Shown in pieces: positions 4,308 through 58,027 of a stretch of DNA of 64,000 bases. Source of the DNA: Eledone cirrhosa (taxonomy: Eukaryota). The translations under genes and the position numbers were made by a program. Numbering within the stretch: position 1 is the first letter of the stretch; each line of letters begins with the position of its first letter. The DNA is taken from contig OZ024742.1 of NCBI GenBank assembly GCA_964016885.1, forward strand, positions 187,984,001 to 188,048,000. Direction: 5' to 3'. The notes beneath the pieces were generated by a model that had not been told where the DNA came from, did not search any database, and worked only from the letters and a program-made list of their open reading frames with translations.

Positions 4308-4572
4308 ACGATATTAATAAATGGAAACTATATTTATAAAACCATATTTATTTCATTATACATATTTCAGGGATACCAAATTAAATTATGGTATGCCTTC
4401 ATCAGACTAAATACAATATATAACAGTTTTACAAATAAGCTTTGACGAACCCTTTTAAAATGCGACTATTATTTTTGGAGGTCAACTGGATAGTGAATTG
4501 TATATATTATTTTAATAAGTCTTAGTGTTAAGGACAATACTTGTTGTATCTCAACAATTTAAATAGAACTTT

Positions 4573-6773: not shown

Positions 6774-7080
<307 letters not shown>

Positions 7081-7137
7081 ATATATGTATATATATTTGT
7101 TTTGTGTGAATATATGTATATATATATGTGTATATAC

Positions 7138-8140
7138 ATAAATGGAAAAGAATGAAACGAAATGTCATTTCTTTCTCTTAGTACGGCTGATACTTAAATA
7201 CAAGTATGCACACGTACATACATAAATGTATACAGACATTCAGTAGTATGTATATATATACATACATGCACACATAAATTATATGTACGTATGGGTTTAA
7301 CGTATATTTATTATAATGTTCGGTTTGTTTGTAAACAAACAGACCGAATTACGCCGTACAGTGTTCGGCACCCATCGTTGCCTTTTTATTCAACACTGAC
7401 AAAGGAACGATGAACTTGTTTCAAGCTTATTAGCTATCGTTAGCATCGTATACCTTCCTGTCAGATGATTGAACGTGGGAAAGTATATACTTTCCTTATG
7501 CATATTAACGGCTGAGCAGCCTAATTCGCATATCGAGTGAGTTAGTCGGTCGGCGTACCGAAATTGATAAATGGAAAAGAATGAAACGAAATTTCCTTTC
7601 TCATTCTTAGTACGGCTGATACTTAAATACAAGTATGTACACGTACATACATATATGTATACAGACGTACAGTAGTATGTATATACATACATGCACACAT
7701 ATATAAATGTACGTATGGGTTTACCGAACATTTATTATAATGTTCGGTTTGTTTCATTCTTTTCCATTTATCGTTTTCGGTACGCCCGGCCGACTAACTT
7801 ACTCGATATGCAAATTAGGCTGCCCAGCCGTTAATATGCATGAGGAAAGTATATACTTTCAAACGTTCAATAATCTGACAGGAAGGTATACGATGCTGAC
7901 GATAGCTAATAACTTGAAACTAGTGCATCGTTTCTTTGTCAGTGTTGAACAAAAGGGAAACGATGGGTGCCGAACACTGTACGGTGTTATTCGGCTGTTT
8001 GTTTACAAACAAACCGAACATTATAATAAATATTCGGTAAACCCATACATAAATATATATGTGTGGATGTATGTATATATATATATATACATACTACTGT
8101 ACGTCTGTATACATATATGTATGTACGTGTACATTCTTGT
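7138..8140. mobile_element. Retrozyme-like 429-bp unit: 1.4 tandem copies (7138-7566, 7567-7752) plus an inverted copy (7753-8140)
   Basis: ataaatggaaaagaatgaaacg recurs at 7138 and 7567. One HHR per unit: 7408-7448(-) and 7891-7930(+). Confidence 0.8.
7891..7930 (+). ncRNA. Minimal type I hammerhead ribozyme (family A)
   Basis: CGATG-CTGACGA-TAGCT-AATA-ACTT-GAAA-CTAG-TG-CATCG. Stem I is perfect and stem III is the palindrome CTAG. Sister copies restore AGCTT and a GTT or GTA cleavage triplet. Confidence 0.8.
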
Positions 8141-8143
8141 ATA

Positions 8144-8214
<71 letters not shown>

Positions 8215-8282
8215 TCGGATCCAGCTGTCGAAACTGACGGAGCTCAGCCGTAGGGCTTCTAAATCTTTTGTGCATATATGTG

Positions 8283-12894: not shown

Positions 12895-13032
12895 TAAGAA
12901 CGCCCCTTTATGGTCTGAGTTCAAATGAGCGTCGAGGTTAACTTTGCCTTTCATCTTTACGGGGTCGATAAAATAAAGTACCAGTAATGCAAAGGGTATT
13001 TGCTGGCCTTGTGCCAAAAGTAGAAACAATTT
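12895..13032 (+). mobile_element. tRNA-derived SINE, family 1 (5'-truncated)
   Basis: B-box-like GAGTTCAAAT, core gaggttaactttgcctttcatc.ttacggggtcgataaaataaagtaccag, 3' end gctggccttgtgcc..agtagaaacaatt. Confidence 0.85.
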
Positions 13033-16580: not shown

Positions 16581-17791
<1,211 letters not shown>

Positions 17792-18039: not shown

Positions 18040-20715
18040 AAAACAAGGAGAAAGAGACGATTATTAGGAAGAAACATTTTTTATCCCCCTTTTTTATTTC
18101 TCTCTCTCGTTTTTCTGGGTTAGAAAATGATTAAAACGAAATGTTTTACTTTGTGTGAAGTGTTAAGGTATTAGTTGATTTATTTATTATTTAACAATGG
18201 CATTTATTTATATATTTATATATTTAATAATTGTCTATTACCGGTTTCAGTATTTTTATGCATTTTCAAATGATAGCGATATGTATTAGTGTGGTGTCGC
18301 ACATGTGAAAGAGAAGGTGCAGAAAGAATAATGTTATTTACAAACAAGGTTTATGAACTGAAAAGAAAAAAAAGAAAAAAGAAAAATAACTGACGTGATG
18401 TAGAGCATAAAAGTCAACGTGAAAGAAAAAATAATGTGATTTACAGGCATAGTTCTTGAAGTTAAGCAGATCAAAATGTGTTAAAATAGCAAGAATGCTT
18501 AGTTGATCCATGATTCCATGATGGAGGCAAATGGTGGACTGTGGTTTGATATGATTTCCCTTTTTAGAGAGTTAATATGCAGGGGGAGGCAATTCTTGCT
18601 GGATGATATTTAAATTTTTAAGAAAAAGGATTAGTTACGATGTGAGGGAGGTAACTCTTGTAAATGTTTGATTGTTTGTTGCAGTTATTAGTTTGGTCCG
18701 ATTTTTAGTGCATTAAGAAGAGGGTGGAATTTGTTAAGTAGAGGTTGGAATTTGTTAATGAAATATGTCTCCTTATTGGTACGATGGATGAAGGTAGCGT
18801 TGTCTATGAATTTGTAAATGGGGAAAATTTGAAAGTTTGGATGTTGGTTCTGTGCACAATTGGCGATATGTTCACTAAATGCAATCTTTCTGTATTCCTG
18901 TATTTTAATTTGTGATTTATGGACGGTCACACGTTGACGGAGGCTGTTTTTTGTCTGTCCTATTTAGTGGTCTTGACAACCTGAGCAGGTCAAAACATAG
19001 TTTTTCAGATGCACATGTAAAGTTGTGTTTAACTGTGAAATGTTGTCCTTGTTTAAAATGGAATGTTGAACCTTCTATTAGATTTATGCATATGACACAC
19101 TTGGGCCTTCCGCATTCTTCTACTGTAGGGTTTATTGTGAGGGTTTGTTGGATTTTGGCTTGTGTGAGGATGTTTTTTTATGGAGTTAGGTTGTCTTTTG
19201 CTCTTTATGATGTTGTGTGTTTGGAGGATTTTGTTCATTCTTGGGTCTCTTTTTACTAGAGGAATGTTCTGAAGGATGGTGCCGAATGCCTCATTGTTGA
19301 GGGGCTTGTGTGTGGAGATGTATGGTAGAGATTTTTGTTGCTGTTCATTCCTGGGTTTGGGGTGTCTGAGTTCCTGGATGTCTAGTTTTAGGGCACGTTG
19401 GAATCCATTGTTGTTTAGGGATGGTGGGTAGTTTCTGCTGATAAGTGTGTTTTTTAATTCTTCTAGTCGTGTGTTTGCATGTGTCTTTATCTGAAACTAT
19501 TGTGCAGATCCTTCTGGCTAGGTTATAAGGAATTGCCCTTTTGGTGTGTCTAGGGTGGCACGAGTTGAATGGGAGGTATTGTTTGGAGTCTGTGGGTTTG
19601 TAAATAGAATCAGACATATATGTCTGATTCTATTTTGTTGCTTGTTTTCTTGATGAGGATGTCGAGGAAAGGGAGTTGTTCATGGCTGTAATCCATTGTG
19701 AATTGTAAGTTTGTGTTGAGTCCATTCAGAAGGGTTTTAAACTCAAACAGTCTATCTATACTTTCATGCCAGAGGATAAAGCAGTTGTCCAGATATCTCT
19801 TCCAGTCCTTTTCATTGTGTTGGTAGAAGTGGTTGCCGTATTTATCTAGAACTTTGCGGTAGAGAGTCGTTTCCAAATATTCCATGACAAGGTTGGCGTA
19901 TGAGGAGGCTACTTTCGTGCCCATGGAAGTCCCAGATTTCTGTCTGTCGTATTTGGCATTGAATTTGAAGAAATTGTTTTCCAAGATGAATTTGAGTCCC
20001 TCCAACACAATTTTTTTAGGGATGCGCTGTGGGAGTTCACTAGAGAAATGTTCAAGCCAGAATTGTATTGCCTCTATACCTAGGTTCTGTGGGATATTGG
20101 AATATAAATTGATTACATCAAAGGTTACTAGTAGGGTATGTTCATTATTGAGTGTTGTTGGGAGGTGGTTGAACATGTCAAGGTCGTCCCATATGAAGCT
20201 TTTTATGTGTTTTAGGAAAGGTTTAAGCAGAATATCTAAGAAGTTGCTTAGGCGGTGGGTTTCACATGTGGTGCCTGCTATTATTGGTCTTATTTTAAGG
20301 TCATCAGGAGGGGCTATATGGATGTAAACGTCTGTGGCTTTCTTGCAGGCCCTACCTATTACTTCGCTTTTGTGTGTCTTTGGTAGAAGAGGCTGGTTCT
20401 TCTTTTGAAAATGGTGATGTAGTTGTATTCCTTGTCTGTAAGGCCTTCTTTGTAAAGGGTTGTTAGGGATTTTAGGTTTCTCATTATTTTCTGTTGTGTG
20501 TAGTGTTGGGCCTTTTCATATATTTGGTTTTCTAGAGTTGAGAGTACTAGAGTTGTGTAATAATCTGTCTCCATAAGGACTATTGCACTCCCTTTAACTG
20601 CCTCTTTAATTGTTAGGGTTTTGTCGTTTTTTAGACTGTTAAGACCATTCCATTCTCTTTTACTTAGGTTTGGTTTTTGTTTATGTCTGTGTAGGTGGTA
20701 GTATGGGTAATTAGT
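18040..20715 (-). mobile_element. Penelope-like retroelement (RT plus C-terminal GIY-YIG), 5'-truncated and decayed
   Basis: Coding remnant at 18688-20700, AT-rich 3' region, degenerate HHR-like motif at about 18235-18277(-) (TTGAAAA..GAAACCGGTA). Confidence 0.9.
18688..20700 (-). pseudogene. PLE reverse transcriptase and GIY-YIG endonuclease, frameshifted
   Basis: NLSKRE..IKEAVKGSAIV, RPIIAG, LVTFDVINLYSNIP, QKSGTSMGTKVASSYANL, WKRYLDNCF, LPFLDILI, YKPTDSKQYL..SCHP, YVLTCSGC..IGQT, ETYFINKFQPLLN. Confidence 0.93.
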
Positions 20716-20754
20716 AATGTGTTCGCAGAATTGTAACACACAATAAATTGAGTT

Positions 20755-20823
<69 letters not shown>

Positions 20824-21825
20824 GTTCAATATTTTTAAAGGAGTTTTCATAGTTCCTTATTACTCCTTTATATGGAGTTAACAAGTTAGCAACAATATAT
20901 TCCTGGAATGCCTTAGTAAATGCAAGTTTCCTGACCTTGGTATCATAATCAGAAGGGAATGATGGTATTACTATTAACCTGTTCACGCTTTTTATAATTG
21001 GCTGCAAGAGATCTTGAGACTTAGCAATCAATGTGTTAAACAGAAATACATTCTTGAAGACTATGCTACACCAGAGCCACAAACCATTTATTAGAACCAG
21101 TAAAAGCAAAATAAAAAAGCATGCATAGACTCATAAACAGATATAATTATATACATATACTTAAATACAATATTTAAAATAAATACAACCAGGAAATATA
21201 TTACATAGGAAACTATAACATAGCATTTATTTCAAGATATATTTAGTTAAATGGAAATTTCAAAGCCAAGTCTTGTGTTTTTAATAGCATAAATATTCAG
21301 GTGCTTTGGAAATTTATAATCATTTTATTCCACGAAACAATCATATTTTGGAAAGTGTAGATGCGAAGGAAATTGCTTTTTTCAAATCAAGGAAATTAAG
21401 AACTAGTTATAGTACAACAGTGAGCACTTAATTTTATTGCGTGCGTTTATGTGTCTTTCTCAATCAGAAATATAATTAGTTTTATATGTGATTAGATAAC
21501 CTAGTAAATGCTAAAACAGAATAAAAAATATCACTCAAATCTATATGATTAATGAACATGAAATATTATCGAAGTCCTTCCGATGATTAGATTTGCCTTA
21601 TTTCTTTCAGGGTAAACTAAGATGTTAAAATAAACATTCGTTGATAATATATGTTATCGATACCGGAAGGCTCAATTATATTAAAACTAAAATTACTTAC
21701 CACGAAATAGTTTATCCAACGTTTTAATGACTCCTCCAATTCACCAGCCTGTAAGTAACTTGTTATAGAATAGGAAAGTTTGAACGCTTCAGAATGTAAA
21801 TGAGATATACATTTGGTGTTTTAGA

Positions 21826-30691: not shown

Positions 30692-31045
30692 CAAATGGAT
30701 ATATGAGGGATGAACACCGATACACGTATACATGTAGTCGAATTGCAAATAACCAAGTTAGCTAGCTGTTCATCCCTTATATATTCAATTGTATGACACG
30801 GCTCGGAAATATTCCCTTCTTTGAGCTATTTAATTGTAAAAGATTATTTCGAGCTTGTAACTCAATATATGATATATATATATATATATATATATAAGAA
30901 TTAAAATACTAGAGTGTGTTGGAGTTAAACACCCTCTTCGTATTATAGAAATGACAGTAAAAGTATAGCTCAATGTAATTAAACAGAGCCGAAGAATTAT
31001 GAAAATAAACCAAAGAAGCCTTCAATACATCAAAAGTCTTTATTA

Positions 31046-31083
31046 GCCAAGAATGTTTCGTCCTATTAAGGACTCATCAGGGC
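31046..31083 (-). ncRNA. Minimal type I hammerhead ribozyme (left arm)
   Basis: GCC-CTGATGA-GTCCT-TAAT-AGGAC-GAAA-CATTCTT-GGC, then AATAAA. Confidence 0.85.
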
Positions 31084-32460
31084 AATTAAAGCTATAAGAA
31101 GCACTATCGGCCAATACAAGCCAAAAACGCAGAAGAATATGGAGTGTATATACATTAAAGCATCGGAAAATATCAAGTAAAAATTGCTAAGGAAGTGAAT
31201 AACATGTTGAACCATATTACAAATATAGTCCAATGCAAAAACTAAAGCTAAACAAAGGTGGTGATATAGAGCGGGAATTATTGTACTATATATAATATAA
31301 TATAATATAATATAATTGATATTAATAATAATAATATTAAAATGCGCAATATACATATATATATATATATACATATGTACACATATATACATATATATCA
31401 ATACACATTTCCATCAATACAAGCACAAACTAACCCTTATTAAGAGTGTATATATAAATAAGAATAATAAGAATAATAAGAATAAAAATAAAGAAAAAAA
31501 TAAAAATAAAAATATAATACATATATTATTTACAGTATAACATGAAGAATAAATGATTAAAAGTAAACATATAATATATAATAAACTATATAATTATATA
31601 ATAGATAATCTCCGGTTAATTTGCACCAACAATATAAATGTTACAATAACACTATAATAACAATATTATAATATAATGGCATATAACTTAACAGATCATA
31701 TAGAGTTAGAGAACGGGTGAGAAAAAAATATTGTACAGAACTAAATTATGTTGGAAAAATTATGTTGGAAAAATATCAAAACCATTGCAAGAAAACAGAT
31801 GGAGGTCAAATTTCTATACAATTGGTGTAAATAAATATTATCCAATCATTACAAAAATTATAAAAATATAAACATATTACAGAATTTACAAAATTTAACA
31901 TAACATAATGGTAAATTTAATAATCGGTAAATAATAAAGATCAGTAGTACGTTTACAAAGAGTGGAATGATATAAAACTTCAATATAAAATATTGAACAT
32001 AGTATAATATACATAATTTCGTGGTTGGTGGACAGACATTTGTGAATAAGTGAATGAGAACCAGACAGAAAACTACGCACGGTAGTATAAATATATAAAT
32101 AAAATCAACCGGAAATCGAAAAACAAAAACAAAAGTATTTACTTCGGTGTCACATGCAGTTAAGTAAAAAATTTAGGAAACAAACCCGGATAAATTACTA
32201 GAAAACCGTTTTAAATTAATTAATATTGAAAGTATTTAAAATACATAATAAGTCAATACAAAATTAGCTATGGTTTAAGTAATAAAAATCTCCAAATTTT
32301 AAGATATTACTATAAAAATATTTGGAAAAGAATGAAATATTCTACTATCAGTTGAATAACGTTATCTAATAAACGGACTTTAAATAGAATTATGGTAGGC
32401 CAATGGGGACAGAAAAAAGAAATGTATGAAGGATACGAAGGAGCATAACATCATAATCAA

Positions 32461-32730
32461 TCTACCTCTTTAGCACACCATATCTGGGATCTTAAGTGGG
32501 CTAATATACCATATAGCCTTAATTGGCGAATAGTAGCACGCTCTAATAACCTTTCAACACATACTAAATTTTGTAATCTCTGTATCCTTGAGACCCACTC
32601 TATAATTTTCTCTAGGAAAACCTTACTTAATAGAAACTCTGAGATATTCTCTTCTTGCCCCCACGCAATTTCAAATTCTTACTTTTATTATAAACCTAAA
32701 GGTTCTAGTAGTGTAAATTGTATCCATTAG
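32461..32730 (+). pseudogene. C-terminal half of a PLE GIY-YIG endonuclease (open frame, no start)
   Basis: Manual translation STSLAHHIWDLKWANIPYSLNWRIVARS..FCNLCILETHSII..LLNRNSEIFSSCPH..* is collinear with the 2407-2823 protein. Confidence 0.88.
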
Positions 32731-33054
32731 CTGCTATATTCCCTTATCTTTTTAGTTTAGGTACATTTTGTTTACCACCAACATTATCATCATTATTATT
32801 ATTGGTTTTTAAAAACTTTTCATTCCAGCTTTCATAGTCTTTTGGCTACCATAATATATCTATCTTCTTAAATATTATATTTTCACTATTAACACCTTAT
32901 GAGTTTATATCTGATTATATATTTTATTTTATATTATTTTATTTTATTTCATTTGGATTCTTCTTTGGATAACTAACCTCCTCCCCCACCCCCACCCCCC
33001 ACACACACTTCTCATTCGCCCCTTCAAATATACTATAATTATATTCAATTCCCT

Positions 33055-33155
33055 TTTATGCTCCTTTCTATTGTATAATACAGTACATTGATTATGATTT
33101 TATGCTCCTTTCTATTGTATGACACAGTATATTGATTATGATTTCATGCTCCTTC
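33055..33155 (+). repeat. About 44-bp tandem repeat (2.3 copies) at the inversion breakpoint
   Basis: ttttatgctcctttctattgtat.a.acagta.attgattatga twice plus a partial copy. Confidence 0.85.
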
Positions 33156-34531
33156 GTATCCCTCATACATTTCTTTTTTCTGTCCCCATTGGCCTACCAT
33201 AATTCTATTTAAAGTCCGTTTATTAGATAACGTTATTCAACTGATAGTAGAATATTTCATTCTTTTCCAGATATTTTTACAGTGATATCTTAAAATTTGG
33301 AGATTTTGATTGCTTAAACCATAGCTAATTTTGTATTGACTTATTATGTAATTTAAATACTTTCAATATTAATTAATTTAAAAGGGTTTTCTAGTAATTT
33401 ATCCGGGTTTGTTTCCTAAATTTTTTACTTAACTGCATGTGACACCGAAGTAAATACTTTTGTTTTTGTTTTTCGATTTCCGGTTGATTTTATTTATATA
33501 TTTATACTACCGTGCGTAGTTTTCTGTCTGGTTCTCATTCACTTATTCACAAATGTCTGTCCACCAACCACGTAATTATGTATATTATACTATGTTCAAT
33601 ATTTTATATTGAAGTTTTATATCATTCCACTCTTTGTAAACGTACTACTGATCTTTATTTACCGATTATTAAATGTACCATTATGTTATGTTAAATTTTG
33701 TAAATTCTGTAATATGTTTATATTTTTATAATTTTTGTAATGCTTGGATAATATTTATTTACACCAATTGTATAGAAATTTGACCTCCATCTGTTTTCTT
33801 GCAATGGTTTTGATATTTTTCCAACATAATTTTTCCAACATAATTTAGTTCTGTACAATATTTTTTCTCACCCGGTCTGTAACTCTATATGATTTGTTAC
33901 GTTATATGCCATTATATTATAATATTGTTATTATAGTGTTATTGTAACATTTATATTGTTGGTGCAAATTAACCGGAGATTATCTATTATATCATTATAT
34001 AGTTGATTATATATTATATGTTTACTTTTAATCATGTATTCTTCATTTTATACTGTAAATAATATATGTATTATATTTTTATTTTTATTTTTATCTTTAT
34101 TTTTATTCTTATTATTCTTATAATTCTTATTTTTATATAAACTCTTAATAAGGGTTAGTTTGTGCTTGTATTGGTGGAAATGTGTATTGATATATATGTA
34201 TATATGTGTACATATGTATATATATATATATATATGTATATTGGGCCTTTGAATATGATTATTATTATTATCAATTATATTATATTATATTATATTATAT
34301 TATATTATATTATATTATATTATATATAGTACAATAATTCCCGCTCTATATCACCACCTTTGTTTAGCTTTAGTTTTTGCATTGGACTATATTTGTAATA
34401 TGGTTCAACATGTTATTCACTTCCTTAGCAATTTTTACTTGATATTTTCCGATGCTTTAATGTATATACACTCCATATTCTTCTGAGTTTTTGGCTTGTA
34501 TTGGCCGATAGTGCTTCTTATAGCTTTAATT

Positions 34532-34569
34532 GCCCTCATGAGTCCTTAATAGGACGAAACATTGTTGGC
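34532..34569 (+). ncRNA. Minimal type I hammerhead (right arm; core G5>C)
   Basis: GCC-CTCATGA-GTCCT-TAAT-AGGAC-GAAA-CATTGTT-GGC-t-AATAAA. Confidence 0.8.
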
Positions 34570-34617
34570 TAATAAAGACTTTTGATGTATTGCAGGCTTC
34601 TTTTTTTTATTTTCATA

Positions 34618-34649
<32 letters not shown>

Positions 34650-53142: not shown

Positions 53143-53187
<45 letters not shown>

Positions 53188-53193
<6 letters not shown>

Positions 53194-53565
53194 GGAAAAA
53201 ATGAAATTTCATTTCACATTCTTAGTACGGCTGATACTTAAATATAAGTATGTATACGTACATACATATATGTATACAGACGTACAGTAGTATGTACATA
53301 CATGCATACATGCACACATATATATATGTACGTATGGGTTTACCTAACATTTATTATAATGTTTGGTTTGTTTGTAAACAAACATCCCGAATTAAGCCGT
53401 ACAGTATTCGGCAACCTTCGTTGACTTTTTGTTCAACACTGACTAAGGAACGATGAACTAGTTTCTAGCTTATTAGCTGTCATCACCACCGTATACCTTC
53501 CTGTCAGTCGATTGAACGTTTGAAAGTATATACTTTCCTTATGCATATTAATGGCTGAGCAGCCT
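53188..53565 (-). mobile_element. Family A retrozyme-like unit, single copy (HHR 53451-53491, decayed core)
   Basis: Collinear with 7138-7522. Minus strand reads CGGTG-GTGATGA-CAGCT-AATA-AGCTA-GAAA-CTAGTT-CATCG. Confidence 0.8.
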
Positions 53566-54135: not shown

Positions 54136-54242
54136 AAGTAAACCTGGAAAAGATCGGCTATTTATTTACCAGACTAAAAATTCTGATTTAGTTCAGAAAT
54201 AGCCGTCGAAACGGCTTGAGCTCTGCCGTCGGGCTCATACTT
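54136..54242 (+). ncRNA. Candidate extended type I hammerhead (GAGCTC-loop family)
   Basis: AAGTAaaCC-TGGAAAA-GAtCGGCTATTT..AAATAGCCGTC-GAAA-CGGC-ttGAGCTCt-GCCG-TC|GGgctcaTACTT. The core is one substitution from TTGAAAA. Confidence 0.55.
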
Positions 54243-54444
54243 TCTCCTATTACCCATGCTACTACCCTAAGTATTGAGTACTCTTGTCCGTTATGGTCCA
54301 TCTGTTTCCTTACCACAACTTCTTCGTTATATATATATATATATATACATATATATAAAAGCATAAATACACACACACACATATATATATATACGTGCCA
54401 GTGTGAATTTAAGTATATATATATGTGTCTCTCTCTCTCAGTCT

Positions 54445-54531
<87 letters not shown>

Positions 54532-54752
54532 CGAAGGAGATGTGGTAAGGAACCAGATGGACCATAACGCACAAAAGTACTCAATACTTAGGGTAGTAGA
54601 GTGGGTAATAGGAACAGGTATGATCCCGACGGCAGAGCTCAATCCGTTTCGACGGCTAAATCTGGACTGTTTAAATCTGGACTGACTGAACATGAGTCCA
54701 GATTTAGCCGTTGAAACGGCTTCAGCTCTGCCCTCGGGGTCATACTTGTTCC
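54190..54752. mobile_element. Two tail-to-tail copies of the GAGCTC-loop family around a microsatellite; right copy has a fold-back head
   Basis: 54190-54330(+) and 54528-54670(-), then a fold-back arm at 54695-54752. Confidence 0.8.
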
Positions 54753-54771
54753 TATATATATAATAAATATA

Positions 54772-57023: not shown

Positions 57024-57643
57024 AGTATGTATACGTACATACATATATGTATATAGACGTACAGTAGTATGTTTATATATATACATACATGCACACATAT
57101 ATATGTACGGATGGATTCACCGAACATTTATTATGATGCTCGGTGTGTTTGTAAACAAACATCCCGTATTAAGCCGTAGTGTCTAGCAACCACCGTTGCG
57201 CGTTTGTTCAACACTGACAAAGGAACGCTGTACTAGTTTCAAGCCTATTATCTATCGTCAGCAACGTATACCTTCCTGCCAGACGATTGACGTCTGAAAG
57301 TATATACTTTCCTTATGCATATTAACGGCTGAGTAGCCTAATTTGCATATCGAGTGAGTTAATCGGCCGGGGTACCGAAAACGATAAATGGAAATAATCA
57401 AACGAAATTTCATTTTTCACTCTTAGTACGGCTGTTACTTAAATATAAGTATGTACACGTACATACATATATGTATACAGACGTACAGTAGTATGTATAT
57501 ATATATACATACATGCATACATATATACATGTACGTATGGATTCACCGAACATTTATTATAATGCTCGGTGTGTTTGTAAACAAACACCCGAATTAATTG
57601 TTTACAAACACACCGAACATTATAATAAACGTTCGGTGAATCC
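57024..57643 (-). mobile_element. Family A retrozyme-like unit, 1.35 tandem copies plus terminal fold-back (HHR 57226-57266)
   Basis: Period 424 bp (57024 and 57448). Minus strand reads CGTTG-CTGACGA-TAGAT-AATA-GGCTT-GAAA-CTAG-TA-CAGCG. Fold-back at 57539-57643. Confidence 0.82.
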
Positions 57644-58027
57644 ACATTTTTAAAGTAGTGAATATGTCACTTACTTCTTTTTTCGGCAAAAGAAGGGAGA
57701 TAAGCTAAGTGAGTCTGTTTGACGCTGTTGGCGTTGCTCGGAGCAACGTACTCCTCGCCTTTGCCGAAAATTATAGAGGCTGGATTCTTATAGAATTCCA
57801 GTAATAATCAGGAGCTGATTATACAGAGCAATTGCTGGTCCAGCAAAAATTAATTAGGTATATATACATACATACATACATATACATACATACATACATA
57901 CATATACATACACATACGCGGAGACACATATGTATGAATGTATGTATGTATGCGCGTATTAAATAAATCGTTTGACTTAAAACTCATGAGTAAATAATGA
58001 AATACGCGCAACCCAACACAAATTATC

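Follow-up and report, generated by a model that had tools for sequence, protein, structure and literature searches.

A 429-bp hammerhead repeat of Eledone cirrhosa with two fixed 3' ends and head-to-head arms, probably copied by PLE machinery

Introduction

Metazoan non-LTR retrozymes are non-coding, low-GC tandem units that carry one type I hammerhead ribozyme (HHR) each, occur as anything from monomers to long arrays and reside in genomes that also contain PLEs (PMC7229834; 10.64898/2026.07.22.740005; here and below, statements about published systems refer to excerpts of the sources cited). Their derivation from PLEs has already been argued (10.64898/2026.07.22.740005), and circular templates have been proposed (PMC4209133). 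Insertions of PLEs show a tail at one end, an inverted 5' copy and a bias toward TA (PMC8557442, PMC3846280). The tail consists of two ends that lie a few tens of bases apart (PMC8557442, PMC3846280) and has been traced in vitro to two internal RT start sites, in a system where both strands are extended and a protein dimer is predicted (PMC11167929). Non-coding PLE passengers that form head-to-tail multimers, e.g., MRC1, have been described from Chlamys (PMC8557442).

The repeat that we describe here shares the above features of the non-LTR retrozymes and is most similar to Rtz331 and Rtz353 of the axolotl and to satellite 2 of the newt (PMC7229834; 10.64898/2026.07.22.740005). Its unit of 429 bp is slightly longer than the retrozyme circles of 170-400 nt reported in those excerpts and falls inside the reported 150-450 bp repeat range. 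It differs from the retrozymes as described there in its fixed 3' ends, tail, head-to-head arms and TA targeting, and here it is known from sequence alone. With the EN+ PLEs (PMC8557442, PMC3846280, PMC11167929) it has in common 5' truncation, partial tandems, an inverted 5' copy, a one-end tail, AT-rich or (TA)n targets, two start sites and, at one locus, a TSD of about 9 bp. Unlike them, the unit lacks an ORF, has a longer tail (57 nt, and 69 nt in a sister family, versus 30-40 nt in the PLEs) and has no sequence in common with the coding PLEs that were examined in this genome. The Chlamys elements, which are likewise non-coding passengers, share 3'-end similarity with their autonomous partner and belong to a clade without canonical HHRs, whereas the 429-bp unit has a canonical HHR (PMC8557442).

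Results

The window is a stretch of 64,000 nucleotides (contig OZ024742.1, positions 187,984,001 to 188,048,000, assembly GCA_964016885.1). An earlier sequence-only reading had placed the unit at three loci, and sequence comparison located it there (7138-8145, 53188-53565 and 57024-57644), with more than one unit in one arm each at 7 and 57 kb and with all four of the proposed HHR copies (Table 1). The period in the window is 429 bp (7138 to 7567), the unit length is 429-430 bp and the GC content is 36.5%. As had been proposed, there is no ORF; the longest stop-free frame in a tripled unit is 77 aa. The 3.0-Gb assembly holds 10,403 exact matches of the 30-mer HHR core and none of the reversed control, and the core is thus not a chance occurrence. 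In total, 58 of 88 elements had an arm of more than one unit, and six had at least two units. The unit length, GC content, HHR and missing ORF agree with the proposed non-coding tandem unit of non-LTR retrozyme type, and, judged by its sequence, the element is a non-LTR retrozyme and probably a non-autonomous element mobilised by PLEs.

Table 1. Features of the unit at the three window loci
Feature	Position	Strand	Remark
Long-end (L) arm, 1.45 units	7138..7754	-	92% to working consensus
Tail of ~57 nt separating the two 3' end sites	7138..7194	-	predicted hairpin, kept in sister family
Type I HHR copy 1	7407..7449	-	core change G5A; loop-3 palindrome disrupted; predicted inactive
Candidate internal promoter region, upstream of HHR	7477..7540	-	octamer-like ATGCAAAT and palindromic TATA-like box
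Short-end (S) arm, 0.92 unit	7748..8145	+	head-to-head with the L arm at 7138..7754
Type I HHR copy 2	7890..7932	+	G17 in core; helix II lacks 2 nt; predicted inactive
TA-rich microsatellite target, left flank	6774..7137		from the sequence
(TA)n target, right flank	8140..8208		from the sequence
Single L-end arm, 0.90 unit	53188..53565	-	3' end inside (TA)21 at 53149-53190
HHR copy 3	53450..53492	-	subfamily with U7 and C.A at helix II base; C3G lesion
S-end arm, 1.38 units	57024..57597	-	from phase mapping
HHR copy 4	57225..57267	-	GUA-site subfamily; core intact; two helix II substitutions
Inverted 47-bp piece	57598..57644	+	phase 75-121, nested in S arm; at neither fixed end site

Positions within the unit are given as phases, where phase 1 is the first base 3' of the predicted cleavage site; in HHR copy 1 this site lies between 7413 and 7412. 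At the 7-kb locus, the RNA 3' end of the L arm is at 7138 (phase 275) and its 5' truncation at 7754 (phase 83), while the S arm ends 3' at about phase 215-218 and continues into (TA)n; the two arms overlap by a few bases where they join. The inverted piece at 57 kb may be either a true fold-back or a truncated second arm. The octamer-like motif differs by one change in the window copy. An octamer-containing motif is common to the related families, and both the octamer and the TATA-like box lie within predicted hairpins. A promoter role for this region is a possible reading of its sequence. Newt satellite 2 has an octamer promoter, which parallels this motif. Another short non-coding repeat occurs in the window (54190-54330, 54530-54755, 16739-16950 and 8217-8260) as inverted pairs between (TA)n runs; it contains a GCCGTCGAAACGGC hairpin and has no canonical HHR core.

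The majority sequence of 50 aligned HHR copies agreed with the consensus of the earlier reading. It has a 6-bp helix I, CUGACGA, a helix II with U.U at its base, an AAUA loop, GAAA and CUAG, with U-U or U-A before the cut and GUU or GUA as the site. The helices are a helix I of 6-7 bp with a bulge and an extension beyond it and a helix II of 4-5 bp, with loop 2 being AAYA. The HHR had been called minimal, a label that its 6-bp extended helix I and palindromic loop 3 contradict. Under the definitions in the excerpts of PMC4209133, canonical metazoan HHRs have a helix I of such kind, and the minimal PLE-type HHRs have a short helix I and a long helix II and lack helix III or loop 1 contacts; the present HHR is thus a canonical metazoan type I ribozyme, expected to act as a dimer. 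It resembles two axolotl ribozymes (PMC7229834), HHR_Amex1 in its weak helix III with a palindromic tetraloop and HHR_Amex2 in the U.U at the helix II base.

Where loci were chosen without the exact-core criterion, the core was intact in 72 of 95 copies. Each window copy had been said to carry private lesions, and this was correct in part. Core-breaking changes were present in three of the four copies, namely G5A at 7.4 kb, G17 with the 2-nt deletion at 7.9 kb and C3G at 53 kb. Several of the other differences are subfamily variants that recur in many copies (A17 and a U.G pair in helix I at 57 kb; C.A at the helix II base and U7 at 53 kb), and G5A itself recurs in three other loci of the 50-copy alignment. 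The HHR of the 429-bp family has U.U or C.A where a G10.1-C11.1 pair is expected and often U at position 17. It did not match the Rfam hammerhead families at E 0.5, and a search of Rfam with the whole unit returned only microsatellite-driven miRNA matches below gathering, while the HHR of the sister family matched Hammerhead_HH9 (E 6.8e-7, below the gathering score). Self-cleavage of the 429-bp HHR is therefore stated here as a prediction, and only one of nine predicted retrozyme dimers cleaved in a published series (10.64898/2026.07.22.740005, excerpt).

A poly(A) signal had been reported missing after the ribozyme. The motif AATAAA is in fact present about 100 nt past the cleavage site (7312, 7736, 8025, 53355 and 57558 in the window copies), but the conclusion probably stands, since AATAAA lies in a predicted hairpin loop and is absent from the sister family; we rejected it as a functional signal. 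At this loop, a SINE-like repeat of about 190 bp was found in two copies (L124:1300-1487 and L076:5830-6030), with the site duplicated in L124; the same repeat occurs in the window at 12900, 29292, 35025, 56078, 56370 and 60288.

HHR repeats abound in this genome. In 953 kb (L002-L109) we found 101 hammerhead-like motifs that belong to at least six other families; in the window, such motifs occur at 4405, 55170 and 62122. One unrelated 310-bp hammerhead repeat (L060:1700-4000) is arranged as 5 + 3 units head-to-head and ends in (TA)n.

The 3' ends were mapped in 79 loci taken in order along C1 and chosen solely by the exact HHR core. Of their 125 outer 3' ends, 53 were near phase 215 (S), 57 were at phase 275 (L) and 15 were elsewhere; the two sites, spaced by about 57 nt, thus account for 110 of the 125, and (TA)4 was found within 30 nt of 86 of these 110. 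The 5' ends were scattered round the unit, as ordinary truncations would be. The 5' ends did not accumulate at the cleavage site, as they would from a cleaved linear template, in a sample that is biased against such accumulation. A pair of ends with a spacing of some tens of bases corresponds to the PLE tail, and therefore the phases are not free permutations. The permuted ends that had been taken as a sign of a circle are accordingly no such sign, and the different phase noted for the 57-kb locus is the second of the two fixed 3' ends. In contrast, mobilisation by PLE machinery, which had also been suggested, gains support from the two fixed 3' ends, the inverted arms and the (TA)n targets. 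TSDs are unreadable inside (TA)n; one of about 9 bp was read at a non-microsatellite site, where a two-unit copy lies antisense in a PLE reading frame (L054:2930-5990) and was then partly carried into the inverted arm of that PLE.

A sister family (L072, L170-L196) has a non-coding 467-bp unit that is collinear with the 429-bp unit at about 55-60% identity, as estimated from the alignment. Its S and L ends are 69 nt apart, at places matching those of the 429-bp unit, and S was paired with L in 12 of 12 and 12 of 13 pairs of arms (24/25 in total), the exception being an L/L pair in L248. Both families are predicted to fold into the same set of hairpins, with S positioned within the loop of a small hairpin and L immediately behind the tail hairpin. 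In a comparison that spans two or three lineages and uses a structure drawn from the same sequences, 19 of 57 pairs were altered on both sides, with 96% of cells paired versus 28-52% for slid partners. The compensatory changes, which affect helices I and II of the HHR as well as one long-range helix, would support selection at the RNA level. The HHR core and the dimer palindrome are invariant between these families. Third and fourth families, of 456-502 bp and 469 bp (L338-L345), have the same two ends; a motif common to the related families occurs 24,468 times, and the 429-, 466-502- and 467-469-bp families are collinear across the head-to-tail junction. The related families thus show the non-coding head-to-tail unit to be old and to have evolved as a unit. 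The 467-bp family itself is very young. Its head-to-head arrays reach 27+9 and 31+1 units (C1:30.83 Mb, C3:113.97 Mb, C1:5.74 Mb; L072:5360-5910), and it is probably active now, because many of its copies are 99-100% alike.

At inverted loci the arms lie head-to-head with both 3' ends outward. Among 39 inverted elements, the window included, 10 had one off-site end each, and the remaining 29 all combined one S with one L end (29/29, P about 1e-9). The same pairing was found in 23 of 23 loci of a second sample (40 loci chosen on the tail), from which three loci with an off-site end and four complex ones were left out; one of the latter, L110, holds an L/L pair and, with L248, forms the exceptions to the rule. 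Overall, an S end was combined with an L end in all 52 simple classifiable head-to-head loci of both samples, and four of four pairs of a coding element with RVT_1 and GIY-YIG, also from this genome, were S+L. The arms of a locus were also alike in haplotype: none of 63 arm pairs differed at >30% of 41 polymorphic sites, compared with 15,289 of 22,730 between-locus pairs (67%). Rare alleles were common to the two arms at 5.6% and to successive units at 7.9%, versus 1.5% when different loci of one haplotype class were compared. The combination of an S with an L end, both on one haplotype, points to one RNA primed twice. We consider it probable that the unit is copied in trans by a PLE RT-endonuclease that primes twice on a single RNA template, probably a circle. 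The retrozyme class and the PLE tail are already known, and the one-of-each, same-template rule appears to be the newer part of these results; in the literature found on retrozymes with head-to-head, target-primed or tail features, in a search that lay outside most subscription journals and supplements, the rule of one end of each kind with the same haplotype was absent.

Given PLE mobilisation, we lean toward a circular template, because locus-wide variants fill every unit of both arms. Such variants were present in every unit of L250, L251, L252 and L260, in both arms of the first three, while other differences were private; the L251 variant is also present in L259. Within the 429-bp family, rare alleles were shared within loci at four to five times the between-locus level, and arms extended across the ribozyme site over as many as 4.6 units (27-31 in the sister family). 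At C1:30.83 Mb, one insertion of the sister family consists of 6.9 + 13.0 units and ends at S and L in (TA)n; 18 of its full units are identical, which could be an assembly effect. We regard as unlikely that the template for the same double priming is instead a linear multimer transcript of existing arrays, with the HHR trimming the 5' end or vestigial and no circle involved. Such a template would suit the PLE RT, which starts internally and has uncleaved linear RNA as its main substrate in vitro (PMC11167929, excerpt), as well as the weak appearance of the HHR in the 429-bp family. Long homogeneous arrays exist as potential masters, and units identical to those at 30.83 Mb form arrays elsewhere that could be such linear masters. 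Haplotypes are mixed between units in L095 and L059, a 4.6-unit array (L056:3927-5863) alternates as ABABA, from either a dimer template or a dimer duplication, and periodic variants occur within arrays A375 and A5 and in the long arm at C3:113.97 Mb; these mixed-haplotype and periodic arrays are, in their present form, no products of a monomer circle; they speak for a linear template and need DNA-level expansion or multimeric templates. However, locus-private variants in all units and both arms need a step that multiplies a monomer, 5'-truncated daughters of a linear RNA could only get shorter, and a vestigial HHR is at odds with a core and dimer palindrome that are invariant across families only about 55-60% alike.

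The inverted arm had earlier been attributed to fold-back, as already proposed for PLEs (PMC3846280, PMC8557442, excerpts): a single priming is followed by self-priming of the cDNA, and the endonuclease cuts the hairpin DNA at the tail so that one end keeps it. Fold-back directly accounts for the common haplotype of the arms, yet 13 of 41 two-arm loci, including young sister loci such as L263, have arms of which neither is contained in the other, and simple fold-back cannot yield those loci; it therefore fails as a general origin. The other 28 loci are nested, more than for shuffled, independent arms, for which a mean of 20 non-nested pairs (5-95%, 16-25) was expected, and fold-back or later deletion may thus act in part; deletions in the centre of palindromes could turn nested pairs into non-nested ones. 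Junctions where both arms start within 20 nt of the same phase were found in six of 41 loci, close to the 3.9 expected by chance, either arm may be the longer (S in 19 of 41), and in vitro both strands are extended from RNA (PMC11167929, excerpt). Taken as the main route, fold-back seems to us decidedly improbable. The junctions of the sister family had at least 2 nt of microhomology in six of 11 insert-free cases, versus 18% expected, and inserts in 13 of 24; this lends weak support to a joining step under the double priming that we prefer.

Matches to PLE endonuclease and RT are abundant in this genome, with frames of up to 784 aa. The window contains the 3' part of a GIY-YIG PLE (30897-34619) with a canonical hammerhead (Rfam Hammerhead_1, 31042-31086, 32.1 bits), whose direct arm ends at 34619 and whose extra 97-nt tail, which occurs in L123 as well, is on the inverted arm only; decayed PLE pieces lie at 19053-20856 and 2407-2823. 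Another PLE (L326-L333) has RVT_1 and GIY-YIG in frames of up to 784 aa, inserts into TA targets and carries a ~40-nt tail, and a scan of these loci for HHRs found none.

The RT and GIY-YIG ORF between pseudo-LTRs that defines an autonomous EN+ PLE is absent from the unit. A sense-strand PLE protein match was not found in the 5' flank of any of 63 single-orientation elements, a sample of the genome. BLAST gave no sequence link of the unit to PLE 3' regions (GIY-YIG matches) or to 72 PLE loci. A coding element sharing the unit was found neither by the HHR scan of 953 kb nor by a pattern search for related HHRs, and no coding partner emerged from the L141 family (DNA or protein), the window RT or 12 long-frame loci. 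The L end of the unit resembles the S end of the L327 family over 16-18 nt only, and this likeness is lost in the sister family. Units beside PLEs proved to be separate insertions into the terminal (TA)n of the PLE or nested (L054), and L141 is a head-to-head contact. We infer a PLE partner in trans from the insertion footprint. The alternative named beforehand, in which a coding PLE has the unit as its pseudo-LTR and the loci are 3' stubs of that PLE, is very improbable: the loci are built like PLE stubs, many retrozymes have matches in PLE ends (10.64898/2026.07.22.740005, excerpt) and about 150 of >10,000 loci were covered, but the 63 single-orientation elements have no coding element attached, arms longer than one unit pass into the next unit, and the head-to-tail junction is collinear in all of the families compared.

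Discussion

Under the double priming of one RNA that we favour, a locus of more than one unit would be transcribed from an internal promoter, neighbouring HHRs would cleave as a dimer via the CUAG palindrome, and the cleaved monomer would be ligated. A PLE protein dimer could then bind the structured tail and nick both strands of a TA repeat, after which each 3'-OH would start synthesis on one flank of the tail, at S within the loop of the small hairpin or at L directly behind the tail hairpin. Both enzymes would travel round the template and halt at random, the two cDNA ends would be joined by short homology or a template jump, and some arrays may later have expanded by unequal exchange. The full version, in which a PLE dimer on one circular ribozyme RNA rolls two RTs from two structure-defined starts and so places kilobases of identical tandem DNA into a microsatellite per event, we put forward tentatively, as a possibility that we would not yet bet on.

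In the twin priming of L1, the second target strand primes a second, inverted cDNA, and the second primer attaches at the stopping point of the first cDNA. The 429-bp unit differs, in that both of its starts are fixed and its 5' breakpoints are unrelated to them.

Since the class of element and the circle hypothesis have both been published, the gain is mechanistic, and no new kind of element is involved. The family turns the copying of retrozymes, the one-end PLE tail and the inverted 5' copy into counts over thousands of insertions, and it provides a defined RNA signal, made up of the small hairpin and the tail hairpin, as well as a candidate substrate for the in vitro assay that already exists for PLEs. 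If double rolling on a circle is true, it would offer a general explanation of the PLE tail and the inverted pLTR, it would prove from genomic sequence that an animal circular RNA undergoes rolling-circle retrotransposition, and it would show that satellite arrays can be born at full length.
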